DNA of 64,000 nt from the IMG/VR virus record IMGVR_UViG_3300036940_000262. One strand, given 5' to 3'. Each line of letters begins with the position of its first letter. The first letter of the stretch is position 1. Origin of the DNA: an uncultured virus (IMG/VR IMGVR_UViG_3300036940_000262) (taxonomy: Duplodnaviria; Heunggongvirae; Uroviricota; Caudoviricetes). Positions 2 through 64,000 of this stretch are shown here, piece by piece. The notes beneath the pieces were generated by a model that ran no database searches, had not been told where the DNA came from, and saw only the letters and a list, made by a program, of their open reading frames with translations. Both the position numbers and the translations under genes were made by a program.

Positions 2-607
2 CGTAACTACACCGTCGAAGAAGCGGCACAGACAGCTTTGGGTAGAGAGTACCATACAAATTCCTACTTAGGTAATGTGGTTAATTCAAGAACAGTAACC
101 AATGAGCGAGATTTATTGGGTTCAGCTAATATCTTGTTCCTCAATGACCTAAACAGAACCTATATCGGTTCAGAGGAAACCAACGGGGTAGACAGAAATC
201 CTGTCGGTGAAGACGGTGTTGAAGTCTTGTCAGAAGAACAGTACGCACAACAAGCTCAAAGATGGCATTTCACGCTAGGTTTACCGTCATCATCGGTCTT
301 TGTCGAAGCAGAACAAGATTGTACTGACGATAACATTCTTGATTTACAAGGCAGTAATCGGGTGATTATCTGTACTCTAGATATTAAAGCGAGAGGTTCT
401 GTATGGACTCTGCAATATCAAGGGGGTACAGGTAACTTCCAAGTCTTTGAAGGCGGACAGTGGTATGAACCACCTGCTTTCGACGATGCTGGAGAACCTG
501 TGGCTGTCGGTAGTGCGGACGATACAACTTCACAAAACATAGTTGTTACCGTATACCCATCAGACAAGACCTCAGCAGACGACTTAACAACTCAAGGAAC
601 ACATTAA
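2..607 (+). CDS. C-terminal part of an unknown, probably extracellular protein (truncated by window start)
   Basis: Frame is open from position 2 to TAA at 605-607; acidic/Thr-rich composition; followed by a terminator hairpin. Confidence 0.7.
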   Translation, partial: RNYTVEEAAQTALGREYHTNSYLGNVVNSRTVTNERDLLGSANILFLNDLNRTYIGSEETNGVDRNPVGEDGVEVLSEEQYAQQAQRWHFTLGLPSSSVFVEAEQDCTDDNILDLQGSNRVIICTLDIKARGSVWTLQYQGGTGNFQVFEGGQWYEPPAFDDAGEPVAVGSADDTTSQNIVVTVYPSDKTSADDLTTQGTH

Positions 608-623
608 TATTTAGCACCATATT

Positions 624-659
624 AACAGAGTCTATCTAGTATAGGCTCTGTTTTCTTTT
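624..659 (+). terminator. Intrinsic terminator
   Basis: AACAGAGTCTAT-ctagt-ATAGGCTCTGTT stem followed by T-rich tract. Confidence 0.7.
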
Positions 660-672
660 ATTTACAACAATA

Positions 673-706
673 TTGACTTTTAAGACAATGTACGCTATAA
701 TGTACA
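673..706 (+). promoter_or_regulatory. SigA-type promoter with YefM/Axe-type operator
   Basis: TTGACT(673-678)-17 nt-TATAAT(696-701); TGTACG (689) and TGTACA (701) cores 12 bp apart overlap the -10, as in yefM-yoeB operators. Confidence 0.7.
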
Positions 707-721
707 TATATAATAAATGAG

Positions 722-970
722 GTGATTAAAATGACAACGATCAATGCGACAAGTTTAAGAAAAAATTTGTTTGAATATCTTAATTCTGCTGTTGAGTACA
801 GCGATGTAATTAACGTAAACACAAAAAAAGGAAATGCAATAATCATCAGTGAAGAAGAGTACAATGGTCTTTTAGAAACTCTTTATTTGATGGCTGTGCC
901 GGGAATGAAAGAAGCCCTAGATGAAGGGGTATCCTTAACGGCTGAAGACTGTGAGGATTTTGAGTGGTAA
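722..970 (+). CDS. yefM: Phd/YefM family antitoxin
   Basis: INATSLRKNLFEYL...AIIISEEEYNGLLETLYL signature; overlaps the toxin gene. Confidence 0.88.
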   Translation: MIKMTTINATSLRKNLFEYLNSAVEYSDVINVNTKKGNAIIISEEEYNGLLETLYLMAVPGMKEALDEGVSLTAEDCEDFEW

Positions 971-3206: not shown

Positions 3207-3239
3207 AAATAAACCACCTAATCTGTAGGTGGTTTATTT
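3207..3239. terminator. Bidirectional terminator between convergent genes
   Basis: AAATAAACCACCTA-atctg-TAGGTGGTTTATTT perfect inverted repeat. Confidence 0.75.
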
Positions 3240-3608
3240 TGTATGATTTTTAATCCAATCAATTAGATTATCAAAACTTAGCTTATTATTTGCTATACTC
3301 AAACCAATATTTATAAGTTCTTTGTCACTGCATTTAATAGAGGTATTATTTATTTCAAGAAAATACTCCATTGCCAGAATACCTGTACGTTTATTGCCAT
3401 CAATAAACGGATGGTTTTTGATTAAAGATATACATAATCTCGATGCTTTAGATTCTATAGTTTTATACAAATCCACACCTTCAAAACTGTGATTTGGGGA
3501 CTGTACTGCAGAGTCTAGTAACTTAAAATCCCTAATACCCAGTATACCTCCAGTTTCTCTAATCAGAAGATCATGCAAAATAATAACTTGTTCGATCGTA
3601 ATCATCAT
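3234..3608 (-). CDS. doc: Death-on-curing (Doc, Fic superfamily) toxin
   Basis: GGILGIRD..LLDSAV and HPFIDGNKRTG motifs. Confidence 0.9.
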   Translation of the reverse strand: MMITIEQVIILHDLLIRETGGILGIRDFKLLDSAVQSPNHSFEGVDLYKTIESKASRLCISLIKNHPFIDGNKRTGILAMEYFLEINNTSIKCSDKELINIGLSIANNKLSFDNLIDWIKNHTK

Positions 3609-3841
3609 TTCGCTAATTCTTCGTAAGCCTTTCTGTGCCTGTTAATTATATCTAAAGCAACGAGTTCAATATCTTCTTTCTTGTAAGAATTTTCAACACT
3701 ACTATATTCAATTAAAACATATTTAGGTGTATTGTTTTTCAGTATAATCACAGAACCTTTCTCATCGACTTGTTTTGCAACTTTGGAGAAGTTTTGATTA
3801 GCTTCTGTAACAGAAACTAAGTTTTCGCTGTTAATTTTCAT
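3605..3841 (-). CDS. phd: Phd family antitoxin
   Basis: LVSVTEANQNFSKVAKQVDEKGSVIILKNN.PKY; overlaps doc. Confidence 0.88.
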   Translation of the reverse strand: MKINSENLVSVTEANQNFSKVAKQVDEKGSVIILKNNTPKYVLIEYSSVENSYKKEDIELVALDIINRHRKAYEELAK

Positions 3842-4374: not shown

Positions 4375-4700
4375 AACAAGGGGATATTATTAAGTTTGAC
4401 TTCGATCCTGTTATAGGACATGAGCAAGGCGGTTATCGACCTGCGATAGTTGTTAGCAACTCTTTTATGCATCAAACTACGGGTATTATAGTTGTTTGTC
4501 CAATAACAAATACTGTTAAAGACTATCCTGTAAGAGTAAGGTTAACTGATGAGGATTGTGTAACTGGTGTTGTAATGTGCGACCAAATCAAATCTGTAGA
4601 CTTGAGTGAAAGGAGTTACAGATTAGTTGGTAGAGCAACAACATGGTTAATGGACAGAGTTTTACATATACTTAGCTTGGAATTGAAAAGAGAGGGGTAG
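4368..4700 (+). CDS. mazF: PemK/MazF family endoribonuclease toxin
   Basis: QGDII..DFDP..GHEQ.G.RPAIVVSN...VCPIT...DQIKSVD. Confidence 0.9.
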   Translation: MVKQGDIIKFDFDPVIGHEQGGYRPAIVVSNSFMHQTTGIIVVCPITNTVKDYPVRVRLTDEDCVTGVVMCDQIKSVDLSERSYRLVGRATTWLMDRVLHILSLELKREG

Positions 4701-4755
4701 TTATGTGCAAAGATATGGATTATATTAAACAAATAATAGAGAAAGGAATACTGTA

Positions 4756-5232
4756 ATGAACAAAATGATACAAAGAATTGAACATATAGATAGAATCAGA
4801 AAATGTTATATCATGTATGGAAACGAAGCAGTTGGTGAGTTGATTGAGGAGACGAGTTCAATAAGTGGTGAGGAAGACTGGGTAATTAAACCTTATCATG
4901 ATGTGATTGAGCGATTAGGTTGGAGAGCGGAACTACCGGGAATAGATAAATCACTAAGAAAAGAGGAATACATCAGAAGAGGTAAACCTGTCATTGTGAG
5001 ACAACGTGTTATCCCTGCTGGTAGAGGAGATTTAGATGCAGAGTTGAAAAGACTGGGATTGAACGAGTATGATGTATTTGAGATGATGTGTCGAAATCAC
5101 GCTGTTTGTGGAAATAATAAACTATATATAGCAAGAACACCACAAGATGTTATAGATGCGGATTCTATAGAGGACAGGTTATCTGTAGCTCCTTCACCAG
5201 ATAACTACGAGGAGTTAGGTTGGTTGTACTAA
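4756..5232 (+). CDS. Hypothetical protein, resembles N-terminal/partner domain of Firmicutes HipA-like kinases
   Basis: RQRVIPAGR.DL...LKRLGLNEYD.FEM segment recalled from HipA-associated proteins; resemblance only. Confidence 0.45.
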   Translation: MNKMIQRIEHIDRIRKCYIMYGNEAVGELIEETSSISGEEDWVIKPYHDVIERLGWRAELPGIDKSLRKEEYIRRGKPVIVRQRVIPAGRGDLDAELKRLGLNEYDVFEMMCRNHAVCGNNKLYIARTPQDVIDADSIEDRLSVAPSPDNYEELGWLY

Positions 5233-5246
5233 ACTATTGATAGAGA

Positions 5247-5303
5247 AAAATTTTGTACCCTACAAATGCTTGTAAAAATGAGATTTGTAGGGTACAAAAT
5301 TTT
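5247..5303. repeat. Perfect 21-bp inverted repeat with 15-nt loop
   Basis: AAAATTTTGTACCCTACAAAT (5247-5267) / ATTTGTAGGGTACAAAATTTT (5283-5303). Confidence 0.85.
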
Positions 5304-5426
5304 ATAAATAAAGGGTAATTAGCAGTTACATTTAATTAAGAAATTTCTTAAAAATATTCTTATTTTTCTTAAAATGGTATTGATTAGTAAAGGTTTTTCT
5401 GTTATAATGTAAGAAAAATAGGAGTT

Positions 5427-6110
5427 TTGATTATGGTGTATGAGAGTGAACTAAAAAAAGAATGGTATAGACCGGGTGAGATAGCAAAAATGTTGGGTGT
5501 TTCATCGAGAACTATTTTAAACTACAGAGAAAACGGTTTATTTGAGATGCGTTTAGATGAGTCGAACAATAGAAGATACGCTTCAAAAGAGGAGTTAATT
5601 AAACTGTTAAAATATAAAGGTGTTTTTTATTCTGATGTTGTAAATGATGGTAGAAAGGTAGCGATATATGCAAGAGTTAGTTCTTATGACCAGAAAAAGA
5701 ACGGTGACTTAGATAGGCAGATTATTAAACTTGAAAAACACATTAAAAACAGCGGTATTCACAATTATGAGCTGTTTTCAGATGTAGGTTCAGGGTTAAA
5801 CACAAAAAGAAGAGGTTTGAACAAATTATTAGATGAGGTTGTTGCATCTAAGATTTCTGTTGTTTATGTTACTTATTTAGATAGGTTGACAAGGTTTGGG
5901 TTAGAGTATTTAGATAAAATTTTTAAATACTTTGATACTAAGGTTATTTCTTTGGATGAGAGAGAGGAGAAAACTGAACAAGAGGAGTTAGTAGATGATA
6001 TGATAACTTTATTAGCCTCTTTTAGTGGTAAACTATATGGCATGAGAAGTCATAGCAAAGTTAAAGTAAAGAAAGCTTTTAAAGGGATTGAAGAAGAAAT
6101 GGGGGAGTGA
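5427..6110 (+). CDS. tnpA: IS607 family transposase (N-terminal HTH + serine recombinase)
   Basis: GEIAKMLGVSSRTI HTH; AIYARVSS..QK..DLDRQ; SDVGSGLN.KR.GL; DRLTRFG; EELVDD...FSGKLYGMRS. Confidence 0.93.
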   Translation: MIMVYESELKKEWYRPGEIAKMLGVSSRTILNYRENGLFEMRLDESNNRRYASKEELIKLLKYKGVFYSDVVNDGRKVAIYARVSSYDQKKNGDLDRQIIKLEKHIKNSGIHNYELFSDVGSGLNTKRRGLNKLLDEVVASKISVVYVTYLDRLTRFGLEYLDKIFKYFDTKVISLDEREEKTEQEELVDDMITLLASFSGKLYGMRSHSKVKVKKAFKGIEEEMGE

Positions 6111-7290
6111 TTTGAGTTTAGATAGTGCAGGATTTAAGATTTGTTTACATCCTAATAAAACACAAGAAAAACTGTTATGGGTGTATTCAAGTCATTCAAG
6201 AGGGTTATATAATCTTTTACTAGCAGAAGCTCAGAGAGCTTACAAAGAGGATAGTATTTCTATTAATTTTAATTATCTTTACAGTTATTATAAACAGTTA
6301 AAAGTTTCTGAGGATTATTCTTGGCTTGCAGAGTTACCTGAAGCCGCAGGAAAGCAGATTTGTAAAGACTTAGTAGAGAACTATAAAAGAGTTTTTAAAT
6401 CTAACTTCGGATTTCCTAAGTTTAAAAAGAAAGGATTGGTTACTCCATCTTTTTATCAAAGAACTGATACACTCTATTTTAAAGGTAACAATAGAGTAGC
6501 CTTAACAGGTGTAGGAGTTGTTAAAGTTACTAAAGGAGATTATTTACCTAAGAAAGAGTTTCAGAGTTTAAAAATATGTAATCCTCGCATTAAGTTTGAT
6601 GGAAAGTACTGGTATTTAAGTTACTCTATTCAATCTCGAAACGAAGAAGGGTTTTCTAAACCTTATACATCCGAAACAAAAGGAATTGGTATTGATTTAG
6701 GTATTAAAGAGTTTATAACAGTCAGTAATGGAACTGTGTTTAGTAATTATAATAAAACAGATAAAGAGTTGATAAGGTTAGATAAGAAGCTTAAAGACTT
6801 ACAGAGAACAAAAGCTTGGAAATTAGAATGTCGTAAGAAGTTTAATCAAAAAGAGATAAGTAATAATATATTAAAACTTAATCAAAAGATTAAACTTGTT
6901 TATAGACGTATTGGAAATATTAAAGATAACTATACTCATTTATACACTTCTACTCTGGTAAAAACCAAGCCTGAGTTTATAGCGGTAGAGAGTTTAGGTA
7001 TTAAAGAAATGAAAGAAGCAACTAATGATGTATCTAAAGAGATTCAAAAAGTAAAATGGTATGAGACTCTAAGACAACTTAATTACAAAAGTAATTATCA
7101 TGAAATACCTTATATTGAGATAGACAGATATTACCCGTCTACTAAGTTATGCAGTGGTTGTGGTAGCATACAAGAAATGTTATTAGAAGAAAGAGTTTAT
7201 AACTGTCCTGTTTGTGGTTTAAGTATTGATAGGGACTTTAATGCTTCTATAAACATAGAAAATAGAGGTAGAGAGCTGTTAACAGCTTAA
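6088..7290 (+). CDS. tnpB: RNA-guided endonuclease TnpB
   Basis: RuvC motifs GIDLG / IAVESL / DRDFNASINI intact; Zn ribbon CSGC...CPVC; GFPKFKKK. Confidence 0.92.
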   Translation: MKKKWGSDLSLDSAGFKICLHPNKTQEKLLWVYSSHSRGLYNLLLAEAQRAYKEDSISINFNYLYSYYKQLKVSEDYSWLAELPEAAGKQICKDLVENYKRVFKSNFGFPKFKKKGLVTPSFYQRTDTLYFKGNNRVALTGVGVVKVTKGDYLPKKEFQSLKICNPRIKFDGKYWYLSYSIQSRNEEGFSKPYTSETKGIGIDLGIKEFITVSNGTVFSNYNKTDKELIRLDKKLKDLQRTKAWKLECRKKFNQKEISNNILKLNQKIKLVYRRIGNIKDNYTHLYTSTLVKTKPEFIAVESLGIKEMKEATNDVSKEIQKVKWYETLRQLNYKSNYHEIPYIEIDRYYPSTKLCSGCGSIQEMLLEERVYNCPVCGLSIDRDFNASINIENRGRELLTA

Positions 7291-7588
7291 GTAGTTTTAA
7301 AACTCAGTAACCGTAGGACTGAGTCTAATCAACCATTCATGAGGTGGGAAAATAATACTAAGAGTGATAATTTCTTATTTTTCTTATTGTTATTATACGG
7401 TTGCGGTAGTGGAATATTTAGATAAGTTCTATGAAGTTTTGACAATTGTAAACAATGTAAAACTATTAAACTCTGTTGTATTAAGAAGTAAACTTAACTT
7501 ATTAACAAAGAAAGAGGTTGATTTAGTAGAAGATTTTTGTTTAAATAACAACATAAATCTACAAAAAGAGTTTAGCATTTAGTTTGTT

Positions 7589-7625
7589 AAACTAGGTAAT
7601 CTTTTCATCTAGTTTTTGTTATAAT
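7589..7625 (+). promoter_or_regulatory. Element-specific promoter (box-N21-TATAAT)
   Basis: AAACTAGGTA(7589-7598), 21 nt, TATAAT(7620-7625); near-identical to the promoter at 8190. Confidence 0.75.
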
Positions 7626-7658
7626 ATAGGTAAAGTAAAGAGTATAGGTGGTATATTT

Positions 7659-8179
7659 ATGAGATTAGAAACAGCACTTTTACAGGATAAAATTGTAGAC
7701 CTATTCCAAAGAGGGGTACAAGTAGAGGTTTTAATGGGTAATCATTTAGGTGCGAAAGATACTGAGGATTATCGCATGATTGGCGGTATGAAGCCAAAAG
7801 AAAGTATCTTTAGTTTTACTTATAAACTATATACAGATGAAGGTCAAGTATTAAAAGGTGCAAATTACCCAACTTTAGAAGAAGCCATGTCAGCAGGAGT
7901 TATGTCTGCAGAGTTTTAGATGTAATCAACAGTAAGTTTTTACTGAAACTGGCAGGTTACCGTATTATATCTATAGTAGAGTATTTAAAAGAAGTTTCTG
8001 CAGTAGGTTGAGTATCTGCAAAGTTCTGGGGACGACTTGAAGCAATAAAAGAAAACGACATAGTTGGGTTTGATTTAGGAGACAACAACTTAGATAGAGA
8101 ATGGTCTAAGATATTAAGCAATGGTTTTGAAGCAATGGGATGTGATAAAACTGAAGATGAGTATATGGGTTGGTTTTAA
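7659..8179 (+). pseudogene. Hypothetical gene, probably degraded (86-aa ORF followed by a frameshifted, TGA-interrupted continuation)
   Basis: ORF 7659-7919; an overlapping frame reads VLDVINSKFLLK...EVSAVG*VSAKFWGRLEAIKE...YMGWF* to 8179 with no start of its own. Confidence 0.45.
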
Positions 8180-42557: not shown

Positions 42558-42575
42558 GTTTAGAGGGGTAGTTTT

Positions 42576-45564: not shown

Positions 45565-45565
45565 T

Positions 45566-46696: not shown

Positions 46697-46760
46697 TGGT
46701 GTATATTGGGGTATGTTGGTGACAATATACCCTTTTATAATAATTTTGTTTTGAAAGGGT

Positions 46761-47943: not shown

Positions 47944-47977
47944 CAAGGTAACATTGGTAGATTTTTTATAGTATAAT
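47941..47977 (+). promoter_or_regulatory. Element-specific promoter (box-N21-TATAAT)
   Basis: TAACAAGGTA(47941-47950), 21 nt, TATAAT(47972-47977). Confidence 0.75.
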
Positions 47978-48008
47978 AGTGTTATAAAATTAAGGAGAGT
48001 GGGGTAGT

Positions 48009-49292: not shown

Positions 49293-49293
49293 A

Positions 49294-50197: not shown

Positions 50198-50213
50198 GGT
50201 TGGAGGTATATAA

Positions 50214-51380: not shown

Positions 51381-51389
51381 GAGGATGTA

Positions 51390-53270: not shown

Positions 53271-53287
53271 TAATAACGAAGCGTTTA

Positions 53288-53320
53288 AAGGCTGTGATGT
53301 AAAAGTCACAGCCTTATTTT
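53288..53320 (+). terminator. Intrinsic terminator
   Basis: AAGGCTGTGA-tgtaaaag-TCACAGCCTT + ATTTT. Confidence 0.7.
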
Positions 53321-53349
53321 TGTATTATCTTAGAGAGGTGGTGAGATTT

Positions 53350-54390: not shown

Positions 54391-54459
54391 AATCTTTTAA
54401 AGAAAAAGAGTATTATATGCGTAAAGGTAAATAAAATAAAACAAACAAAGGAGTTTTTA

Positions 54460-55356
54460 ATGGAGATTATTAGTGCAAGTCAGAAAAATGCTGTTTTAGA
54501 GAATTTTCGAGAGATTTTAGCGTTGAATGTTGCAGAGGATGATGGTTATCTTCTAGAAGTTTGCAAACTGAAAGATTCAGAGGATCGTGTTAGAAACAGA
54601 TTAAAACAGTTTAAAAAAGTGTTTGAAAATGTTTTAAAAGAAATTCTAAAAGAGGACGACTCAGCAAAAGAGGTTTCTACAGCAACTTATTTTAAATTCT
54701 CGTACTCAGGAGACGAGATGCGGTTTATTGACGTAGTGATCCGCTACAGTCTCGGTGGTGAGTATGTCGATAAATTCAGAGTTGGGGTATCTGTAGATGA
54801 GAATATGTACGGTTCTTTAGTGTACAACTTGACTGAAATTTTTGAGACAATTTTAGTAGATGTACTTAAAAACATCAATCTTTCTAAAATCAACGAAGCT
54901 TATAAAAAAGCTACAGACGAAGCAGGTGTTGATTATACTGTGTCTTTCGTAACTGAGCTAGCAGGTGGTAAAAAGAATGTATTTAAAATCACTGATACTG
55001 AATTGGTAATGGTTGCTCATAAAGACTTGTTTGAAGAAATCTTGACTCTTGAGGATCTGGCTGAATATAAGTTAAGCAAAGAGGTTGAAGCTTTAAAAGC
55101 ATCTCAAACACCACAGTTATATATGGACAAAAAGACAGAACTGTATCTGCTGTTAACTGGTCTTAGTAAACGTTCTAAAGTGTCTGTTCTTATCAAAAAA
55201 GCTTACACAAAGAAAATTGAGAACGTTGGAACATCTACTGACCTGTATGCTAACAAGTTAGATGGTGATGTATTCTCTGTAGTTTATGTAGATAAAGACG
55301 GTTTACAGAAAGAAGTACTCAGCCCATTCAACTTAGAAACATTGCTGAGAGTATAA
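54460..55356 (+). CDS. Hypothetical protein
   Basis: AAGGAG RBS; 298 aa. Confidence 0.7.
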   Translation: MEIISASQKNAVLENFREILALNVAEDDGYLLEVCKLKDSEDRVRNRLKQFKKVFENVLKEILKEDDSAKEVSTATYFKFSYSGDEMRFIDVVIRYSLGGEYVDKFRVGVSVDENMYGSLVYNLTEIFETILVDVLKNINLSKINEAYKKATDEAGVDYTVSFVTELAGGKKNVFKITDTELVMVAHKDLFEEILTLEDLAEYKLSKEVEALKASQTPQLYMDKKTELYLLLTGLSKRSKVSVLIKKAYTKKIENVGTSTDLYANKLDGDVFSVVYVDKDGLQKEVLSPFNLETLLRV

Positions 55357-55359
55357 TCT

Positions 55360-55944
55360 ATGGAAGAGCCGGAAAAACAACCTAAGAAATACAGTTTTAA
55401 AACAATTGGTATAGTTTTAACTGCAATAGTGTTTGTCATTCTGGTAGTACTTGTAACTGTTAATAGTTGTAGTATAGAAAAAGAAAATTCAAATACAACT
55501 GAGGTACAACAAAGCCAAGTAGAGGTTGAAGTTCAAGACAGCACTGAAACCTCTACTTCAAAAGAAGGGGCAGTTAAAACAGAAGAAGAACCTTCAACTG
55601 ATGGGACAAAAGAGGATGAAGAAGTTGAATTTGTCTTAGAAGGAAAAGGGAGGGATACCGAGGAAGTGCCGATACAGAGTTCATTACAAGAGGTTACGGG
55701 TGAAGTTTCTGGAAAGGTCTTTGAGGTAAATTGTGCTGTATCAAGTAAGAAAGTATATGAGTACGAAGGAAATTATGTGTTCTCAGTTAATTTGATGATT
55801 CCTGTAGAATCGAGCGGGTATGTGTCTACAGATTATTTTTGCAATAAGAATACCTATGATGCGGTAAATTTTGGTGATTTACTGTTAGTAGAGTACTTGG
55901 TGTCAGATACAGGGAAAATCGGAATAATTTCAGTATCGAATTAG
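55360..55944 (+). CDS. Single-TM protein with acidic linker
   Basis: N-terminal TM helix. Confidence 0.7.
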   Translation: MEEPEKQPKKYSFKTIGIVLTAIVFVILVVLVTVNSCSIEKENSNTTEVQQSQVEVEVQDSTETSTSKEGAVKTEEEPSTDGTKEDEEVEFVLEGKGRDTEEVPIQSSLQEVTGEVSGKVFEVNCAVSSKKVYEYEGNYVFSVNLMIPVESSGYVSTDYFCNKNTYDAVNFGDLLLVEYLVSDTGKIGIISVSN

Positions 55945-56001
55945 TATATCATACTTACAGAACAAAGTACAGTAATTTTTTTAGTAAATGGTTATAATGG
56001 G

Positions 56002-56030
56002 TTGTAAATGTGTAGAGTATTTGGTATAAT
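56002..56030 (+). promoter_or_regulatory. SigA-type promoter with extended -10
   Basis: TTGTAA(56002)-17-TATAAT(56025), TG at the extended position. Confidence 0.55.
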
Positions 56031-56106
56031 ACATATATCAAGTAAGTAAGGCAGTTAAGTTAAACTGCTGAAGAAAATAAAAAAATATATATCAATCAGG
56101 AGGAAA

Positions 56107-56922
56107 ATGATTATGGCATTTGCGTATGATGGAAAAGAAGAAGCTAAAAAAGAAGTTAAAGGTGCAGAAGCAACTAAAGCTACTCCAGTAGAATCTGTTG
56201 CAAAAGAAACAGTTGTTGAAGCAGGTGTTGAGTATGGTTCAAAACAGGGTGCATTAGAATTCATGGCATCACTTGTTGATCCTTCAAACCCAATTACACG
56301 AGTTTCTAAAAATAAAGCTCCAGACCACAAAGCGGTTACTTCACCACAGGTTGTCGGCTACCAGTTTAAATTACTGGAGGATATGCTTATTCCTGAATGT
56401 GGTTTAACAAACAAGTTCAAAGGAAAAGGCGGACGTATGGACTTCATTGAAGCTCAGTTCGATAACATGGTTCCACATAAAAAAGGCGATATCGTAAACT
56501 TAACTCCTTTCGAAGCAGCTAAACTGTTATCTCAGGATCAGTTCAATGGTAAAGCTTCTGGTGGGGAGTTTCCAGTCAAATGTTCTTATACTTCAAACAC
56601 TGTAACAAACAAAAAAGGCGAAAAAGCTATTGTTGAAAACGGCTCTATCCCTAATGTTGTACTGAAAGGCGTTGGCGGTGCTTCTATCCTTGACTTCCGT
56701 TCAATTGAAGTATTAACAGTAACTACTTCAAAAGGAGAAGGCGGACGAAGCGTTAAAGAACGTAAAATCGTGCCAGGTTTTGAAAAATGGGAATGTTTGA
56801 CTGTAGTTGGTGGTACTGGTACAGGACGTACTTCTTCTCGAAAAGCTGACGGGCCAGACGAAAAAGCTATCTCTTTCAACAAACTTATGGCTAACCGAGC
56901 TAAGAAACTGCAAGCTAAATAA
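56107..56922 (+). CDS. Hypothetical protein, likely highly expressed
   Basis: AGGAGG RBS, own promoter and terminator; codon use (GCT, CGT, TTC, AAC, AAA) unlike neighbours. Confidence 0.75.
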   Translation: MIMAFAYDGKEEAKKEVKGAEATKATPVESVAKETVVEAGVEYGSKQGALEFMASLVDPSNPITRVSKNKAPDHKAVTSPQVVGYQFKLLEDMLIPECGLTNKFKGKGGRMDFIEAQFDNMVPHKKGDIVNLTPFEAAKLLSQDQFNGKASGGEFPVKCSYTSNTVTNKKGEKAIVENGSIPNVVLKGVGGASILDFRSIEVLTVTTSKGEGGRSVKERKIVPGFEKWECLTVVGGTGTGRTSSRKADGPDEKAISFNKLMANRAKKLQAK

Positions 56923-56952
56923 GAGCCAACAAAACATTACTTATATACCGAG

Positions 56953-56986
56953 AAATCGAGATTGTGTAAACAGTCTCGATTTTTTT
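56953..56986 (+). terminator. Intrinsic terminator
   Basis: AAATCGAGATTGT-gtaa-ACAGTCTCGATTT + T tract. Confidence 0.75.
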
Positions 56987-57144
56987 AGATTGAGGTTCTT
57001 TTTGAGTACGGTTGGTAGAAATTATTCTTAGAAATAAAGGGGGTAAGTCTCTCTTAATTGAATTGTTTCTAAAAGGGGTAAACGAATGAGTATAGATATA
57101 AGTAGTAAGTTAAGATGTGAGAGTGTGAAAAGAGGTATTGCAGA

Positions 57145-58515
57145 GTGAGTGAGAACTTTGAAAAAGACGATATCAGTTATGCCAGACAATACCGACCTTC
57201 CACGCTAGACGGATATATTGGTAATGATAGAGTAAAAGAGACAGTGGTAAACTTACTTTCAAAAGGAAACTACCCTCAGAGTATATTATTAGAGGGTAAT
57301 ACTGGTTGTGGTAAAACTACATTATCAAGAATTGTCACCTCTTGGTATACTTGTGAGGATAAGAAAGAGGATGGTTCTCCTTGTGGTGAATGTGTGACTT
57401 GTGGGTATATGAAAGAGTATATACGGACAGGTAAGAATGAAATGTTGTCGGATATTCAAGAGATAGATACTTCTGACAAGTCTGGTAAACATGATATGGA
57501 TTCATTATTAGAGGAGATTGAATACCCTGCATACGGTGGCGGTTGGAAGGTGTATATACTTGATGAGTGCCACGCTATGAGTCAGGGAGCTGCAACAAGG
57601 CTGTTAAAGGTACTTGAGGAACCACCTGAGAAGGTTTTAATAATATTCTGCACTACAGAACCTCAAAAAATGTTAGATACGTTAAAAAACAGATGTCAAC
57701 TAAAGTTGAAAATTGTAAAACCGACTCTAAAAGAGTTAGGTAGTCTTTTAATTGGGGTGTGTAATCGGGAAGGTGTTGAGTATGACTCTGAGGGGGTAAG
57801 AATGATTTGTAGTCGTTCAGACTTTGTTATCAGGGATGCCTTAAATAACATCGAAAGAGTTATAAAAACAAGGGGTAATGCTCTAGGTACAAGTGTTTCC
57901 GATGAGTTTCTGGAGATTTCAGATAACATAATATTTGATTTCTATGATGCTTACTTAGACGGAAATGACTTTATGTACATAAATGTACTGTACAGGATTA
58001 AAACAACGTATAACTTCAAAGATTTTATGCAAGCGTTGCTCAACTTTACAATCAGAGGTGTATATGTAGTAAACTCAATACCTGTCGAGGGTTTATCTGA
58101 ACTTGAAATGAAGACATATAAAGAGGTGTTTTCTAAATTCACTCTACCTGAGCTTTCGGGGGTACTTGAAAGACTTTTAAATATAAACTCAAAAAGCACA
58201 AATATTGAAGCATCTTTAATCGCTTTTATGTATAGTGTAAACGAAAAAGAAGCTGATTTAAACATCGAGGATTCAAAAAATGAGCAGGGTACTTTTAAAA
58301 GAACACCAAAATCAAAGACAGTTGAAAATTCTATAGTAGAAGATAGAGGTGTGGTAGGTTTAGGTAAGGAGCGTGAGTTCAGGGATCAGAATATTAAGAA
58401 TCTTGAACAGCGTTCTCTAAACAGAGGTATTGAGTCTGTCAAGAAGTCTAGTAGTGATGTGGTGGATTTTGGGGATGTTTTAAATCTGTTTGAGGTAGAG
58501 AAAGTTAGGGGATAG
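57145..58515 (+). CDS. dnaX: DNA polymerase III gamma/tau (clamp loader) subunit
   Basis: ARQYRP..L...IG; GNTGCGKTT; C...PCGECVTC; VYILDECH; LLK.LEEPP; TTEPQK...T..NRC. Confidence 0.9.
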   Translation: MSENFEKDDISYARQYRPSTLDGYIGNDRVKETVVNLLSKGNYPQSILLEGNTGCGKTTLSRIVTSWYTCEDKKEDGSPCGECVTCGYMKEYIRTGKNEMLSDIQEIDTSDKSGKHDMDSLLEEIEYPAYGGGWKVYILDECHAMSQGAATRLLKVLEEPPEKVLIIFCTTEPQKMLDTLKNRCQLKLKIVKPTLKELGSLLIGVCNREGVEYDSEGVRMICSRSDFVIRDALNNIERVIKTRGNALGTSVSDEFLEISDNIIFDFYDAYLDGNDFMYINVLYRIKTTYNFKDFMQALLNFTIRGVYVVNSIPVEGLSELEMKTYKEVFSKFTLPELSGVLERLLNINSKSTNIEASLIAFMYSVNEKEADLNIEDSKNEQGTFKRTPKSKTVENSIVEDRGVVGLGKEREFRDQNIKNLEQRSLNRGIESVKKSSSDVVDFGDVLNLFEVEKVRG

Positions 58516-58531
58516 AAAGAGAGGTAAACAT

Positions 58532-59290
58532 TTGAAATCGAGGAGAATTTTTAGTTTGATGCTGTTGGTGTTAGTACTTCTAAACTGTGGGACAGTCTTA
58601 GCTGTTTCCTTAGATGATAACGTAACACCATCAGGAGGTAGTGGTGGTATAGCAGGGTACATTGAGGATTATGAACCGATAACTGATGAACAGATGACAT
58701 CAGCGGCAAATATAGCATCACCTGCTGTAAGCATTATTGGTAAGGTAGTCGGGGTAATACTTGTTCTTGTGATAGCTGGTGTTAGTGCGATAACTGCCCT
58801 AGATTTAGTCTATATTGGTATCCCACCTGTACGAGGTCTACTATACTCAGGAGGGACTACATCTGGTAACAGTGCTATGGGTAATCAAGGCATGGGCATG
58901 GGTGGTATGGGCTATGGAAGTAATCATTATGGTAGAGGTGGCATGGGCATGAACGGTATGCAACAGCCTAATAATGGTCAGGTATCCTCTTTCGGCGGTA
59001 TGCAATGGGTGTCCGATGAGGCTGTAGACTGTGTTGCCCAGGCAGGGGGTTCTGCTAATATGCAACAGCAAAATCCTTCTCAAATGATGCCAGGGATGGA
59101 TGGTGGACAGCAACCTAAAGGTACTAAGTCTGTAATCATTATGTACTTAAAAAGAAGAACTGTATTTATTGTAATCTTCATTGTGTGTTCAGTAGTTTTA
59201 TTCAGTTCAGCAGTCATGGGAACAGGGGTAAATATTGGAAACTGGATTATTAGGATTCTAGAAATGTTTAACGGGTATTCACCGTCATGA
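58532..59290 (+). CDS. Membrane protein, paralogue 1 of a three-member family (G/M/Q/N-rich loop)
   Basis: Signal peptide + TMs; DLVYIGIPPVR...WVSDEA...YLKRR. Confidence 0.75.
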   Translation: MKSRRIFSLMLLVLVLLNCGTVLAVSLDDNVTPSGGSGGIAGYIEDYEPITDEQMTSAANIASPAVSIIGKVVGVILVLVIAGVSAITALDLVYIGIPPVRGLLYSGGTTSGNSAMGNQGMGMGGMGYGSNHYGRGGMGMNGMQQPNNGQVSSFGGMQWVSDEAVDCVAQAGGSANMQQQNPSQMMPGMDGGQQPKGTKSVIIMYLKRRTVFIVIFIVCSVVLFSSAVMGTGVNIGNWIIRILEMFNGYSPS

Positions 59291-59565
59291 GTGAGTTAAC
59301 AAATCATTTTAAGAGGAAATGGTTTGGAAAAACATCATCTACAAACGATATAAAGTCTAAGATGGAATTGAAGTCACAGATAATGTCCATGTGCAACAGA
59401 GAGCTTGTAGAGAACAAAAACAAATCATTTATTTTTGAAGTTTCAGAGGATAAACTTCATTTAGCAGTTATTGTTATAACAGACGAGCCTTTAAAATCAT
59501 TATATAATATAATTCAACAAAGTGAAAGCTTATTTAAGGCAAGTCTAGTGGAGGTGGACTTATGA
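59287..59565 (+). CDS. Hypothetical protein
   Basis: ATGA overlaps at both ends. Confidence 0.65.
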   Translation: MSELTNHFKRKWFGKTSSTNDIKSKMELKSQIMSMCNRELVENKNKSFIFEVSEDKLHLAVIVITDEPLKSLYNIIQQSESLFKASLVEVDL

Positions 59566-60008
59566 TTGAGACAGTTTATAAACTTGATCAAGTATATAGA
59601 ATAAGTAAGGATTTAAAAGTTACTCAGAGGGATGTTAAAGCTATACTAGACACATACTTCAACTTATTACGCTATCAATTAGAGAACGGTAAATCAGTAA
59701 AGGTGTTAAGCATCTGTCACTTAATATCGGAGTTTGATAATGATGAGTCATTCAACACATTAGCTTTTATATCGACAGAAATCGCATCAGTATTAAAGTT
59801 AGGAAAGCATACAGTATTTGGGGTACTGAACTACTTAAATGAGCTTATCATTGACGATTTAAGAAAATCAAAAGCTTATGTGCTGTACGGTCTAATAAGA
59901 GTAGAGTTGACTTATGAATCTGTAACAGTTTTAAAGTCTAAAGTATATCAAAATATGGGTATACGGGTATACACAAGCAATAGTTTCAAAAGAAAGGTTT
60001 TAGCATGA
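59562..60008 (+). CDS. Tandem HU/IHF-like histone-like protein (putative)
   Basis: Two repeats of the HU helix-helix-strand pattern: ISKDLKVTQRDVKAILD...QLENGKSVKV and IASVLKLGKHTVFGVLN...DLRKSKAYVLYG. Confidence 0.55.
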   Translation: MIETVYKLDQVYRISKDLKVTQRDVKAILDTYFNLLRYQLENGKSVKVLSICHLISEFDNDESFNTLAFISTEIASVLKLGKHTVFGVLNYLNELIIDDLRKSKAYVLYGLIRVELTYESVTVLKSKVYQNMGIRVYTSNSFKRKVLA

Positions 60009-60697
60009 CAGGCAAAACTCACCGAATCGGTGGGGTTTTCTGTGTTTTAGGGGGGTATACATTACTATCTGCAAATGGCATGTTGTTGAGTGGTGTAAAT
60101 CCACTTTTACAACTTGGTGTTATGTATCCTTTCGCTATGTATGGTGCTATTGTATCTGACTTAGATCATCATTGGGAGTCTTGCCCATCAAAAGATTTGG
60201 TAAGCTACGGTATTAATAAGACCCTACATCTTTTTAATAAAGTAGAGGATATAACAGAGGTAGTAGCAGATGGTTCATTATTAGATGAAACTTTTTCATT
60301 TTTTAGTGTAAAGCATAGAAGTTGGCAAACACATTCTGATCTGTTTCTGTTAGTGATGATAGGGTTAATGTTTTATCTATTGACAGGCGAGGTAACGACT
60401 GCTGATCAAGTTATTATAAAGTTGATGTTTACTGGTCTTATTTTAGGCATAATTAGTCATTTAGCCTTAGATATGCTGACACCTGAAGGTGTGTGGTGTT
60501 TTGCTTTTATGGCTTTAAAAAAGCTGTCAAAGCGGTTTAAAGGGTTGCGGGATAAAATAAATCTTGTACCTAAAACAGAGTTCTTCAGTACAGGTGGGCG
60601 GTGGGAAAAGATAGTAAGAGGGGTATTATGGCTCTCTAGTTTTATCTTAGCTGTGCCTATAATACTTGCTATGTTTGGGTACAAACTAAAATTTTAA
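60005..60697 (+). CDS. Membrane metal-dependent hydrolase (YdjM-like)
   Basis: MTGKTH..GG; DLDH; HRS.QTHS; SHL.LDMLT. Confidence 0.85.
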   Translation: MTGKTHRIGGVFCVLGGYTLLSANGMLLSGVNPLLQLGVMYPFAMYGAIVSDLDHHWESCPSKDLVSYGINKTLHLFNKVEDITEVVADGSLLDETFSFFSVKHRSWQTHSDLFLLVMIGLMFYLLTGEVTTADQVIIKLMFTGLILGIISHLALDMLTPEGVWCFAFMALKKLSKRFKGLRDKINLVPKTEFFSTGGRWEKIVRGVLWLSSFILAVPIILAMFGYKLKF

Positions 60698-60707
60698 GGA
60701 GGTTCTT

Positions 60708-61571
60708 ATGTTAAAAACTAGAACAACAAATTCATTAAAAGGTTCACTATTATTTTTATTAGCATTACTTTGTACAATGCTTCCCGTATATGCAAACGTT
60801 AGTGAGGATGTAGCGATGACTAATCTTCAATCGTATGTATACAAAGCTATTTCAGGTAACAGCTATGGTTTAGAAGCAGGTGGTTCAGTTTCAGGGAGTG
60901 ATATTCTTGTATTAGATCAAACAGGTGGGACTACAAGGTACACTATGAACGAAACACAATTTACAAAGCTTTCAAAATCTGCACAGGAGGATTTTGTAAA
61001 TGATATTGCAGAATACTCTGAAGAAGCTGTGTATGTGGCCGAGAATGGTACAGGTACAGGAACATCAGTAGAAGGTGTAACAAACAGTACAGTACAAAAT
61101 TGGTGGCAACAGTTACAAACTGTAGATGGTGTAGGTACTAAGTTCTTAAACGTAATATTAGAGGACACTAAACCAGACTTTGTAACGGCAAAGAAAATAT
61201 ATTCACCTTTTGATAATGTAGTAGCTGTAATCCTAGCCCTAATCGCAATCCTAATCATGGCGCTGCTAGGGGTAGTAATGGGTGCGGATATTGCGTATAT
61301 TGTACTGCCACCCTTCAGGTTATTTGTAACTGAGAAAGACGAATCTGAAGGGGGTAAAATCCCCGTATCAAAACTAATTTCTCATGCGGCGCTATCTGCT
61401 GTAAAAGAGGGAGAAGGCGAAGAGTCAAAACAAGTTTTAGGTATCTACTTAAAAAGAAGAGTAGTAATGATTTGTTTACTTGCTATCTGTTTAATGTACT
61501 TAGTACAGGGCCAGATTTACACATTTGTTGGTTGGGTATTAGACTTAATGAACGGATTTTTAAATTTCTAA
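60708..61571 (+). CDS. Membrane protein, paralogue 2
   Basis: Signal peptide; DIAYIVLPPFR...ISHAA..AVKE...YLKRR...GQI..FVGW. Confidence 0.75.
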   Translation: MLKTRTTNSLKGSLLFLLALLCTMLPVYANVSEDVAMTNLQSYVYKAISGNSYGLEAGGSVSGSDILVLDQTGGTTRYTMNETQFTKLSKSAQEDFVNDIAEYSEEAVYVAENGTGTGTSVEGVTNSTVQNWWQQLQTVDGVGTKFLNVILEDTKPDFVTAKKIYSPFDNVVAVILALIAILIMALLGVVMGADIAYIVLPPFRLFVTEKDESEGGKIPVSKLISHAALSAVKEGEGEESKQVLGIYLKRRVVMICLLAICLMYLVQGQIYTFVGWVLDLMNGFLNF

Positions 61572-61582
61572 TATAACTGTAT

Positions 61583-61610
61583 AAGAGTGCTTTAACAGGC
61601 ACTCTTTTTT
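61583..61610 (+). terminator. Intrinsic terminator
   Basis: AAGAGTGC-tttaacag-GCACTCTT + T tract. Confidence 0.7.
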
Positions 61611-61630
61611 AATAAGGTGGTGAAATACTG

Positions 61631-62380
61631 TTGAAAAGAAAAACAGGGTTTATGTTACTAATATGGTTAACTTTATTTACATCCTGCGTTTTAGCTGATA
61701 GATTAGAGGTTGATTCAGTTACTTATATTGTAAAAAACTCAAGTGAATTAGGTTTGATATGTAGCGTTGGAAATACACAGGCAGGTGTGGAGGTGTTGGT
61801 TTATGATGGTTCTGATGGAACATTATCTTTTAGCTCAAAAAACTACTCAACACTAACTGTATTAGAAAAAAGAGAGTTTATGGAAGTGACTTTATTAAGT
61901 GTAAACTCTAGTGGTTTGAGTCCACAAGCAAAGAACAAAACATATAACTTCATAGAGGAGAAAGACTCAACTGCATCAGCGGGCGTAAAATATCTTAAAT
62001 CGGATGCTGGGGTAGATTTTGCAACAGCTGCATATCTACTAAGACCTTTTTCAGGTTTTGTTGGCATTGTACTAGGAGTAATGTCAGTCTTTATCTTTAT
62101 TATGCTAGGTGTTGTTATGGCTTCGGATTTAGCTTATATGGTATTGCCATCAGTTCGAATCATAGGTGACAGGTCTGATGGGGAGAGACCAAGATGGGTT
62201 TCAAGAGAAGCTTTCCATGCTGTGAAAGAGGCAGAGGGTTCTACAACGTATAAAGGTGTATTAGGTATGTATTTGAAATTAAAGATACCTTTGATACTTG
62301 GGATGTCTGTTTGCATGACTTATTTAATCAGTGGTAAAGTATTTGACATAATCGGGTTCTTAGTAGATGCGTTTGGGTGA
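61631..62380 (+). CDS. Membrane protein, paralogue 3
   Basis: Signal peptide; DLAYMVLPSVR...WVSREA..AVKE...YLKLK...GKV..IIGF. Confidence 0.75.
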   Translation: MKRKTGFMLLIWLTLFTSCVLADRLEVDSVTYIVKNSSELGLICSVGNTQAGVEVLVYDGSDGTLSFSSKNYSTLTVLEKREFMEVTLLSVNSSGLSPQAKNKTYNFIEEKDSTASAGVKYLKSDAGVDFATAAYLLRPFSGFVGIVLGVMSVFIFIMLGVVMASDLAYMVLPSVRIIGDRSDGERPRWVSREAFHAVKEAEGSTTYKGVLGMYLKLKIPLILGMSVCMTYLISGKVFDIIGFLVDAFG

Positions 62381-62388
62381 GGTAGATA

Positions 62389-64000
62389 ATGAATATGTTT
62401 AAAAGAATAACGAGTTTATTAGCAGTTTTTATGGTCGTACTAAACATAGTGATTCCACTGGTAGAAGTAAACGCTGCAACAGACTCTAACGGTAGAATAA
62501 GTGCATTTATTAGTTGGAGTGCGGGTAAAGAGGTAAATGTCTCAGACTTTGAAAACACTAAGTTTACTCAAAGAGATCTTCAATTCTTAGGTGTATATTT
62601 GTCAAACTTCTATGTACCATTCGGAACAGAGTTAGGTGAGAGTGACGAATTAACAGAGATGAATAAGACAGACATGGTGTCTGCGCTACAAACAAGTTTA
62701 AACTTCGATGATGCTGTAGCAACAAGTTTTGTGGAAACTATACTTGGTATGTCTCGTTCTTCATCTCAAGAGTTGAGTTTATATGTCTCTAACACTTATC
62801 AAGGGGATATGGTGTCTGTACCAGATGTACCTCTCAATTACTATACTGTACTGTCTTGCATGTTAGGTGGTCTACCAGAAATTATGGAGAGTTACGACTC
62901 TACAAATTCTGTATATGCAGGGATGAAGACAGGGTACTATCAGTATGGGTATTTTTGCACAAGTGATGGCAAGCCTGTATTTGATTTTGATCTAGATATG
63001 AGTACAATGACAGCTTCAAACACTGCTTTTATTAAGTGTTTAGAGGCTGTAGATATGGAGAACGGGTATGGTACAAGCTTCTTTGATTTTAAAGAGGGTG
63101 AGATTACAGTAGATAACGATAGTTTTAATATTATTAATGGGGAGGTAACTGACGAGCAATCGTACCAAATGTCAGCATACGGTATGCGACTATCTGTAGA
63201 CTGTTTTGGTAACTTGATCATAAACGGTGCAAATCATCAATTGATAGCTGTACCTGGGTGTATGAATCCGTATACTTGGAAAGAGGTTGATTCGGATGGT
63301 AAAGAAATTTCAGGAATAAATCATGGGGGTACTGCTTATAATTTAATTTCTGTCCCTTCTTTATCGTTGCAGACAGGTCAGGGTAGTAACAGCCTATTCA
63401 GCACTATATCAGCACCAATTGAAAGTACAACAGCAGAAGTTGTAGAGTCTGGGGATGATACAATTGTAATTGCTTTTGACGGCAAACTTGGTGAAAAGAA
63501 CCTTATTTCAGGACGATCAACATATTTGACAATGTTTAAAACGCTTTTAAATTACGGGTTTGGTGGGGAAGATGGCGTAGAGGATCTTTACACAATTGGC
63601 TGGAACGGAAATTCTTTGACAATAAGCGGTAAAGCTTCAGATTTGGTAAAAATGAATCCAAACAGGCTTGATTATGATGTACTTGATTCAGATCCAGATA
63701 AGTACGGAGTGATAAGAGGTGTAAAGAACAATTTCGCCCAGTATTTAGATCCCGGTGTGTCTGGCAATTGGCAGACAATAGACAGTAACTTAACCAAAAT
63801 TTACACTGAAGCACAAAACAAGTTATCTGGTTCTTCTGATGATTCTTCTGCAGTATCAAACACAAAAACAGGTGAAGTTACAATTGATGCTTTGAAAAAA
63901 CACTTAAATAATATGGTTGGTAAAACATATCCTATATTGATGCCCTCTGTAGATGCTGAATATAGTTTTAGAGTTCTTCGAGGAGATAGTGAAACAGCAA
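62389..64000 (+). CDS. Large secreted/membrane protein, N-terminal part (runs off window; absent from ORF track)
   Basis: GAGGT RBS; MNMFKRITSLLAVFMVVLNIVIPLVEVNAA signal peptide; frame appears open to the window end. Confidence 0.75.
   Translation, partial: MNMFKRITSLLAVFMVVLNIVIPLVEVNAATDSNGRISAFISWSAGKEVNVSDFENTKFTQRDLQFLGVYLSNFYVPFGTELGESDELTEMNKTDMVSALQTSLNFDDAVATSFVETILGMSRSSSQELSLYVSNTYQGDMVSVPDVPLNYYTVLSCMLGGLPEIMESYDSTNSVYAGMKTGYYQYGYFCTSDGKPVFDFDLDMSTMTASNTAFIKCLEAVDMENGYGTSFFDFKEGEITVDNDSFNIINGEVTDEQSYQMSAYGMRLSVDCFGNLIINGANHQLIAVPGCMNPYTWKEVDSDGKEISGINHGGTAYNLISVPSLSLQTGQGSNSLFSTISAPIESTTAEVVESGDDTIVIAFDGKLGEKNLISGRSTYLTMFKTLLNYGFGGEDGVEDLYTIGWNGNSLTISGKASDLVKMNPNRLDYDVLDSDPDKYGVIRGVKNNFAQYLDPGVSGNWQTIDSNLTKIYTEAQNKLSGSSDDSSAVSNTKTGEVTIDALKKHLNNMVGKTYPILMPSVDAEYSFRVLRGDSETA

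Follow-up and report, generated by a model that had tools for sequence, protein, structure and literature searches.

Why would one strand of a genome carry the same short word every few hundred bases, and what reads it there? The question is raised by the uncultured virus record IMGVR_UViG_3300036940_000262 in IMG/VR (Caudoviricetes), here analyzed as a stretch of 64,000 nucleotides (hereafter the window, with the strand as given taken as the + strand). The + strand contained 118 copies of the hexamer GGGGTA and the - strand a single one, the array spanning positions 185..63331. An earlier reading of the letters without database searches (hereafter the sequence-only reading) had drawn attention to this polarity, with 40 sites counted by eye in the first 21 kb, about 110 in the window, and 15-20 expected by chance. 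The full counts of 42 and 118 bear this out. So do the expectations: a zero-order model predicts 16.5 sites on the + strand (the observed number is 7.2 times this value), and 100 dinucleotide-preserving shuffles gave a mean of 20.6 sites (maximum 33) for both strands summed. Density was about one site per 540 bases and was flat across the window (11-18 sites per 8 kb).

Enrichment of GGGGTA beyond codon usage

As a control for codon usage, synonymous codons were shuffled 1000 times inside each of the 74 + strand genes. These genes contained 104 copies of GGGGTA, compared with 31.3 ± 5.1 in the shuffles (maximum 48 in 1000), which ranked the word first of 4096 hexamers (z = 15.7). All three reading frames contributed (observed vs. 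shuffled: 60 vs. 15.6, 20 vs. 11.1, and 24 vs. 4.3). Gly-Val dipeptides were spelled GGG-GTA in 60 of 134 cases (45%), with 13.8 expected. The enrichment survives this codon-aware control. Spacers, 5.5 kb in total, held 12 copies where 1.4 were expected (8.7-fold; maximum 6 in 2000 shuffles), and the early observation that the word occurs in different frames and between genes is confirmed with an excess in each of these settings. GGGGTA was realized at 104 of the 270 places where synonymous changes can reach it, and the realized fraction was alike in nearly all genes, including the ZnuABC cargo.

The enriched unit is a bare hexamer. Each of the 12 positions on either side carried 0.01-0.15 bits, and no longer or gapped motif was found within these ±12 bases. 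All 18 one-mismatch variants occurred at 0.26-2.1 times expectation; AGGGTA, TGGGTA, and CGGGTA were at 1.2-1.4 times, so that enrichment in the window is confined to the form with four Gs. Relative to the codon shuffle, the neighboring words GGGGTT and GGGGTG were at expectation and GGGGAA was depleted. The reverse complement TACCCC was expected on the + strand only about twice (zero-order) or 1.3 times (codon shuffle). The sequence-only reading was thus right about its single occurrence, in a terminator-like hairpin, but at an expectation of about two this rarity is no sign of avoidance and adds nothing to the case for polarity. The polarity consists of one-strand enrichment together with G/C skew, without avoidance on the other strand.

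Two sources of the word were tried and rejected. A role in ribosome binding does not fit, since only 4 of the 118 sites end 0-14 bases before a called start; Shine-Dalgarno-like hexamers were themselves depleted inside genes (codon shuffle: AGGAGG 14 vs. 27.8, AAGGAG 17 vs. 31.7). Families of repeats are not the source either, the flanks being uninformative and direct repeats covering only two sites, both in an acidic repeat protein described below. Taken together, these results support GGGGTA as a selected, frame-independent signal at the level of DNA (or RNA). A limited look at the literature on GGGGTA and phage found nothing relevant, the matches being mostly primers, so that an earlier report is possible.

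A second hexamer, TAAACT, independently exceeded the codon shuffle in + strand genes (57 vs. 25.3, z = 7.6). It showed no polarity (68 copies on the + and 66 on the - strand).

A 140-kb relative with the same core word

One large protein of the window had only eight homologues among 5.8 billion proteins. With the alignment of these eight as query, a single IMG/VR contig was found (hereafter G406; 140,467 bases, labelled provirus, CheckV completeness 73%). A scan with a two-sequence clamp-loader alignment likewise returned G406 alone. G406 and the window from 32 to 64 kb share 21 genes in the same order, at 23-47% protein identity; the clamp loaders are 49% identical. The features of the window concerned are:

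32067..63999, + strand: syntenic block, with genes for a PP2C phosphatase, a Ser/Thr kinase, an ArdC-like metallopeptidase, a 5'-3' exonuclease, and HU-like and YdjM-like proteins
57145-58515, + strand: DnaX-like clamp loader gene of the block, common to G406
62389 onward, + strand: gene for a large protein, also common to G406

In G406, 133 of 138 called genes lie on one strand, and the other five look spurious. Its guanine-plus-cytosine (GC) content is 0.33, with a GC skew of 0.26-0.39 in every full 5-kb bin. The gene strand held 164 copies of GGGGTA and the opposite strand 10, compared with 42 and 5 for the reversed word as a control. The pentamer GGGTA stood out here, with 660 copies on the gene strand (one per 213 bases) vs. 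52 on the other; the latter compare with about 26 under a zero-order model, a hand estimate that uses the base composition of a 21-kb locus (L052). No 5-mer exceeded the codon shuffle more than GGGTA (600 vs. 261.7, z = 26.5). There was a mild preference for A or G ahead of the pentamer and for T behind it, and its density was 4.0 per kb in spacers and 4.8 per kb in genes, with 15-33 copies per 5 kb along the record. The branches represented by the window and G406 therefore share the core GGGTA and differ in its length.

As a proxy for the host, the hexamer was counted in 402 genomes drawn evenly from Bacillota, the phylum to which both Clostridiaceae and Trichococcus belong. The highest density was about 1.07 per kb (both strands) and the highest ratio to the reversed word about 1.9; none of the sampled genomes approached the window, which on the same measure has 1.86 per kb and a ratio of 5.2. 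In stretches from the four Bacillota genomes highest in density or ratio, GGGGTA ranked 204 to 1806. The survey is compatible with a reader encoded by the host, because a host Chi of weak enrichment would go unnoticed in it.

Because a relative at 23-47% identity keeps GGGTA on its gene strand and none of the 402 Bacillota genomes comes close, the sequences support the view that the word is a trait of the element's lineage. The sequence-only reading had proposed to look for a flip in polarity. None was seen in the 64-kb window or in the 140 kb of G406; since almost every gene lies on the motif strand, however, a word that follows replication and one that follows transcription cannot be told apart.

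Spacing and turnover of sites

The copies of GGGTA in G406 are spaced more evenly than by chance. The coefficient of variation (CV) of the spacing was 0.850 vs. 0.996 expected (0 of 3000 simulations as low), the largest gap 1080 bases vs. 1506 (P = 0.012), and pairs closer than 30 bases numbered 42 vs. 84. For eight control 5-mers of like count, the CV was 0.96-1.15. GGGGTA in the window leans toward evenness in the same way (CV = 0.886, P = 0.12): no two copies are closer than 35 bases, and pairs closer than 30 bases numbered 0 vs. 6.1 expected.

Individual sites are poorly kept between the two elements. Among 27 GGGGTA sites of the window that fall in gap-free aligned positions of orthologs, G406 had GGGTA at the same place in 4 and GGGGTA in 2; at five other aligned sites, it spells the same Gly-Val as GGTGTA or GGTGTT. 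Density and evenness are thus maintained while single sites turn over, a pattern predicted by selection for coverage by a distributed signal.

Exclusion of GGGTC and other word biases

A neighbor of the core word, GGGTC, is nearly excluded from the gene strand of both elements and in all frames. Frame by frame, the window contained 2, 1, and 4 copies vs. 15.1, 4.2, and 11.3 in the codon shuffle (total 7 vs. 31.4), and G406 contained 0, 0, and 1 vs. 16, 2.5, and 18.8 (total 1 vs. 37.7). GGGTT and GGGTG were at or near expectation in both, GGGTG being somewhat below it in G406. On the other strand of G406, 43 copies of GGGTC were present, 35 of which are GAC-CCN (Asp-Pro), a spelling that avoids GATC. 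Possibly, the exclusion in one orientation reflects evasion of type III restriction; it is predicted by none of the models weighed below.

Several palindromes were also rare on the gene strand of G406 relative to the codon shuffle, namely CTAG (3 vs. 203), GATC (23 vs. 233), ACGT (11 vs. 167), CATG (40 vs. 182), and CCGG (1 vs. 49). Avoidance of CTGG was confined to one strand (54 vs. 275 in genes by the shuffle; 58 in the whole record vs. 216 on the other strand). Palindrome avoidance was mild in the window and limited to GATC and ACGT.

Local exceptions in the window

The only - strand copy of GGGGTA, the longest stretch free of the word, and the few - strand genes were inspected individually:

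27548..27595, + strand: terminator-like hairpin just past the stop codon of gene 26192-27547; folding energy -27.3 kcal/mol (z = -7.5), a stability reached by 0 of 200 shuffles
27565-27570, + strand: GGGGTA copy in the ascending arm of this hairpin, nine bases upstream of the - strand copy
27574-27579, - strand: the single - strand copy of GGGGTA, in the descending arm
4700..7712, + strand: longest GGGGTA-free stretch (3019 bases), containing an IS607-type element and as G-rich as the rest
5427-7290, + strand: IS607-type element, with a serine recombinase carrying a MerR-type helix-turn-helix (5427-6110) and TnpB (6088-7290)
3234..3841, - strand: Fic-domain gene with an upstream partner gene; no other credible - strand genes occur near the array, and neither strand has GGGGTA here

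The sequence-only reading had suggested that the IS607-type element lacks the word. No copy is present there, but this carries little weight as evidence: a gap of 3019 bases is ordinary for 118 random points (mean largest gap 2883), and the two genes offer only 6 reachable sites, 0 of them realized (P ~ 0.05). The explanation of the element as foreign DNA without the word was rejected, as neither the gap nor the deficit of reachable sites is significant. Over the Fic cassette the + strand GC skew is negative (-0.18 and -0.14); this reversal shows that the skew follows the coding strand.

A promoter-like box, AGGTA-N21-TATAAT, was present in six copies on the + strand (at 1682, 7594, 8195, 37071, 37841, and 47946), preceded by AAC(T/A). 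The relaxed form AGGTA-N12-26-TAWAAT had 9 matches (7 on the + and 2 on the - strand) vs. 4.2 in shuffles. The box may mark an element-specific sigma factor or activator. Its suggested link to GGGGTA comes down to four shared letters and nothing else, although the box itself was correctly recognized in the sequence-only reading.

Gene content of the two elements

The window comes from a large, phage- or plasmid-like element that is unclassified; its GC content is 0.36 and its GC skew about +0.27 almost throughout. A greedy gene call placed 74 of 78 genes on the + strand; one of the four - strand calls (4095-4475) was discarded as spurious, because a MazE-like + strand open reading frame sits there. 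Pfam families were found for 27 of 66 proteins, leaving 39 without a family. Those with a family include (i) surface proteins with ChW and Listeria-Bacteroides repeats, the ZnuABC transporter, and toxin-antitoxin genes; (ii) two tandem Dam-family methylases, a thymidylate kinase, and a Ser/Thr kinase with a PP2C phosphatase; and (iii) a PARP/WGR protein, an ArdC-like metallopeptidase, a 5'-3' exonuclease, and the DnaX-like clamp loader. The window had no tRNA genes and no Rfam families, and no recognizable capsid, portal, or terminase was found by Pfam or PHROGs in the window or in G406.

The two methylases are paralogous adenine methylases of the D12 class (21823-22539 and 22561-23274, + strand), about 71% identical over stretches of 150-255 bases; such a pair could methylate both strands of an asymmetric site. 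The acidic protein at 53320-54390 (+ strand) consists of repeats rich in Asp and Glu, each with a Trp-Gly, and includes 8 copies of a 63-base unit. A variant contig lacks 84 bases of this gene (53694-53779) and has other sequence in place of 62383-62476 and 62711-63002.

Variant contigs are 99.5% identical over 44001-62383 and thus too close to test the conservation of sites; of 162 differences, none of the 40 listed falls in a GGGGTA site. Window DNA occurs in contigs of oil-field and subsurface metagenome runs, with no RNA runs listed among the sequencing runs that carry it. Megablast of 16 kb of the window gave no match in phage and plasmid collections, and two further scans of viral contigs gave no close relative. 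When the clamp loader was used as query against viral, metagenome, and genome contigs, only relatives at 28-40% identity came up, none with the word; its best phage match, LR745208.1 (485 kb), has a GC content of 0.54 and no GGGGTA excess. TnpB has relatives in species genomes that are mostly from Trichococcus (the best one included), but as they are only 26-38% identical they are no guide to the host. ZnuA is 33-35% identical to proteins of Oscillospirales plasmids. A search of the ESM Atlas with a 626-amino-acid protein gave a model with a predicted local distance difference test score (pLDDT) of 0.32 and no usable lead.

For G406, 93 of 124 proteins had no family by Pfam and 51 of 63 none by PHROGs. 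Among those recognized is a split zinc-finger primase, with a CHC2 zinc ribbon on one protein (172 amino acids; Zn_ribbon_DnaG, E = 6e-11) and a Toprim part on another (252 amino acids; Toprim_2, PHROG 'DNA primase'). Further replication proteins are a DnaB-like helicase, a sliding clamp, a clamp loader, and a type II topoisomerase. The contig also encodes a RecD2-like helicase (1126 amino acids), SbcCD-like, DHH, and UvrD proteins, an FtsK/SpoIIIE-like ATPase (748 amino acids; PHROG E = 5e-21), and ParB-like and actin-like proteins. In the FtsK-like protein no Pfam match to the FtsK gamma domain was found, and the motor domain was below the Pfam cut-off. Three tRNA genes lie in locus L058 on the - strand, namely tRNA-Leu(AAG) at 165-238, tRNA-Gly(CCC) at 893-966, and tRNA-Leu(UAA) at 1137-1222. 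The tRNA-Gly(CCC) reads GGG, a minor glycine codon in G406 (14%) that the word forces into genes.

Candidate readers of the word

Selection at the nucleotide level acts on one strand, at a high and even density that has been kept across a deep lineage. GGGGTA, or its core GGGTA, is probably read by an enzyme that travels along one DNA strand, and we tentatively favor a Chi-like signal for a helicase-nuclease. The word would then be a distributed signal whose effect depends on orientation, recognized on the gene-carrying strand in single-stranded form. Starting from a broken fork or free end, a helicase-nuclease like AddAB or RecBCD would reach the word from its 3' side, whereupon it would cease degradation and turn to repair. 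Having the word every 200-500 bases would mark a genome as 'self', to be protected and recombined rather than destroyed. Three points are inferences here: a helicase-nuclease as the reader, a motif strand with its 3' end at the point of entry, and a matching specificity in the enzyme of the host or of the element. The Chi-like reading is favored because the word itself is under selection, by the codon shuffle in the window and in G406, and because its sites are even and turn over, as selection for coverage predicts.

Chi sites in phage genomes are reportedly treated by Bobay et al. 2013 (PMC3784561). Among the mechanisms weighed, a Chi-like signal is the only one with a direct precedent in a mobile genome. 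Lambdoid phages without a recombination module are described as carrying the Chi of their host over-represented in one orientation (Zheng et al. 2025, PMC12315714); for LLS the ratio is 20:3, with one Chi per 1.86 kb, and for the Pseudomonas phage MD8 it is 32:0, Chi being the commonest octamer of the phage and the 43rd of its host (PMC12315714). The AddAB enzyme of B. subtilis recognizes a pentamer, AGCGG, on the strand that ends 3', and the over-representation of Chi serves self-recognition (PMC4824097). Firmicute Chi is thus a short word, with a parallel in GGGTA and GGGGTA. Like the Chi-rich phages LLS, MD8, and P1, the elements studied here have a short G-rich word as their most over-represented one, nearly all in one orientation and at synonymous positions of genes. 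Searches for recombinases (RecA/UvsX, RecT, Erf, Red-beta) and for Gam-type inhibitors gave no match in the window (66 proteins searched with Pfam, 45 with PHROGs) or in G406 (130 and 63), both sequences being incomplete and most of their proteins without a family. The elements differ from these phages in that the word has 5-6 letters instead of 8, occurs once per 213-540 bases instead of once per 1.9 kb, and is flat in density, and in that its core is common to two deeply diverged elements.

Several observations speak against a Chi-like signal. No AddAB or RecBCD gene was seen in the window or G406 by Pfam or PHROGs, the RecD2-like helicase of G406 does not belong to the known Chi readers, and the lineage has repair nucleases and helicases of its own (SbcCD-like, DHH, UvrD, and RecD2-like). 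None of the 402 sampled Bacillota genomes, taken as proxies for the host, had an excess of GGGGTA. The density of the word is 3.5 to 9 times that in LLS and is flat over 64 and 140 kb, the true genome ends not being located; Chi in LLS and MD8 crowds toward the end at which RecBCD enters (PMC12315714). Nor does a Chi model explain the exclusion of GGGTC on the same strand in all frames.

Nearly as likely as a Chi-like signal is a priming site for a DnaG/T7-type primase of the lineage. The lagging-strand template would read 5'-GGG(G)TA-3', with the 3' A as the unread 'cryptic' base and synthesis starting opposite T to give pppACCC(C); in an AT-rich genome, where such a G-rich site is rare by chance, enrichment would be needed for a start every few hundred bases. 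The form of the word fits. It resembles the best site of T7, 5'-GGGTC, from which pppACCC is made with C as cryptic base (PMC11109968), except for that base, and a 3' A is found in the sites of Firmicute DnaG, which starts at the middle T of CTA/TTA (PMC2978363). A single zinc-finger change (H33A) shifts T7 to GTA/GTG. With the sites of zinc-finger primases (T7 gp4, Firmicute DnaG) the word has in common the form of a G run, then T, then one 3' base, read on the single-stranded DNA of one strand. G406 encodes a primase of this zinc-finger kind (CHC2 zinc ribbon and Toprim parts), as well as a DnaB-like helicase, a clamp loader, and a sliding clamp. Provided that forks run with transcription, the lagging-strand template is the motif strand; the GC skew follows the coding strand, however, and gives no fork direction. 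The even spacing is of a size with Okazaki fragments, which measure 1000-2000 bases, the largest gap in G406 being 1080 bases. One site per 213-540 bases matches T7, in which 161 preferred sites on the top strand amount to one per 248. Abundant recognition triplets on the lagging-strand template have been argued to provide more initiation templates (PMC2978363), but enrichment of the kind seen here has no precedent in the genomes compared. In T7, GGGTC occurs 39 times on the top strand vs. 37.8 expected, and 55 times on the bottom strand; in the AT-rich, T7-like P-SSP7, whose primase specificity is assumed, GGGTC, TGGTC, and GTGTC occur 14, 42, and 17 times vs. 19.2, 25.1, and 25.1. Moreover, known primases require just a triplet, the primase genes lie outside the 64-kb window and were seen in G406 only, and the word has a 3' A where T7 has C, with the T7 site GGGTC being excluded.

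The remaining explanations are less probable. A transcription-linked signal, GGGGUA in RNA or GGGGTA on the non-template strand of the bubble, through which a bound factor keeps the polymerase elongating or protects very long transcripts, is unlikely, although all credible genes with the word are on the motif strand, G-richness goes with the coding strand instead of a fixed DNA strand, spacers within operons carry the word as densely as genes, and the core of the ops element, which RfaH reads, is similar to the word. Known signals of this type occur once per operon and not every 200-500 bases, the ribosome is excluded as reader by the depletion of Shine-Dalgarno-like hexamers and by the 4 of 118 sites before starts, and no candidate RNA-binding reader was found. 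Less likely still is a KOPS/SRS-like guide for a directional pump of double-stranded DNA, for example the FtsK/SpoIIIE-like ATPase of the lineage, in segregation, transfer, or packaging. Polarity above 90% is a hallmark of such guides (PMC3384302), they too are spread over the whole replicon, and G406 encodes FtsK/SpoIIIE-like, ParB-like, and actin-like proteins. Yet the known guides have 7-8 bases at one per 2.1 to 12.7 kb with a skew of 0.79-0.91 (PMC3384302), converge on dif, and are read by a gamma domain, whereas the word has 5-6 bases at one per 0.2-0.5 kb, neither the 64 kb nor the 140 kb showed a convergence point, and the FtsK-like protein of G406 had no Pfam match to the gamma (KOPS-reading) domain. 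Least probable, and very much so, is a by-product without a reader, arising from base skew, codon or codon-pair preference, repeats, or context-dependent mutation bias. The gene strand does have a strong G bias (skew about +0.27), Val is encoded mainly by GTA (50%), and GGG-GTA codon pairs make up 60 of the 118 sites. This reading is already largely refuted by the codon-shuffle and spacer results: every frame shows the excess, as do spacers (8.7-fold), while GGGGTT and GGGGTG stay at expectation, GGGGAA is depleted, and GGGTC is excluded. Uninformative flanks argue against repeats as the cause, the G-rich IS607-type element has no copy, and the same core is enriched in G406, mostly at other places.

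Comparison with further systems places the word among polar over-represented genomic words, in no single family. DNA uptake sequences (DUS/USS) are about equally frequent in both orientations, unlike the word with 118:1 in the window and 660:52 for GGGTA in G406. Stoperators of cluster A mycobacteriophages are asymmetric, repressor-bound sites of 13-14 bases in short spacers; here a bare hexamer without flank information has 104 of its 118 copies inside called + strand genes. A likeness in orientation is found in CAGCAG of T7 (0 copies on the top and 36 on the bottom strand), an asymmetric word with all its copies on one strand of a genome with co-oriented genes. Its bias is attributed to type III restriction. 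This would account for orientation only and leave a 4- to 7-fold excess unexplained, but the absence of GGGTC from the gene strand may be a case of it. The sequence-only reading had proposed an orientation signal specific to the element, for replication, recombination protection, segregation, or DNA transfer. A selected, lineage-specific signal is what we find, and any of these four processes may be the one that uses it.

Implications for the lineage

Polar over-represented words such as Chi and KOPS are among the few rules of DNA 'grammar' known for bacterial chromosomes, and that phages load themselves with the Chi of their host was shown only in 2025 (PMC12315714). The word described here is denser and more polar than the LLS Chi and KOPS/SRS examples compared, and it belongs to a deep lineage of almost unannotated giant elements from subsurface metagenomes. 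As the lineage encodes candidate readers, the readings can be tested with recombinant proteins and oligonucleotides, without culture of a host.

More speculatively, the word could be a private 'self' code of giant elements that form a lineage not described before, with 140 kb or more and with every gene on the same strand, read by an element-encoded enzyme acting on single-stranded DNA. A split zinc-finger primase or a helicase-nuclease would be productive only on DNA with GGG(G)TA every few hundred bases, so that the replication and repair machinery would serve its own genome and not that of the host. The code would co-evolve with its reader, giving a pentamer and a hexamer branch, tRNA-Gly(CCC) would pay the coding cost, and GGGTC would be forbidden. 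This combined picture is doubtful.

If the reader is a primase, we know of no earlier case of a genome visibly shaped by the site of its primase. If the word is Chi-like, it would point to a candidate Chi of an uncultured host group and to a way in which giant elements avoid degradation from their ends, and it could also mean escape from Chi-limited CRISPR spacer uptake.

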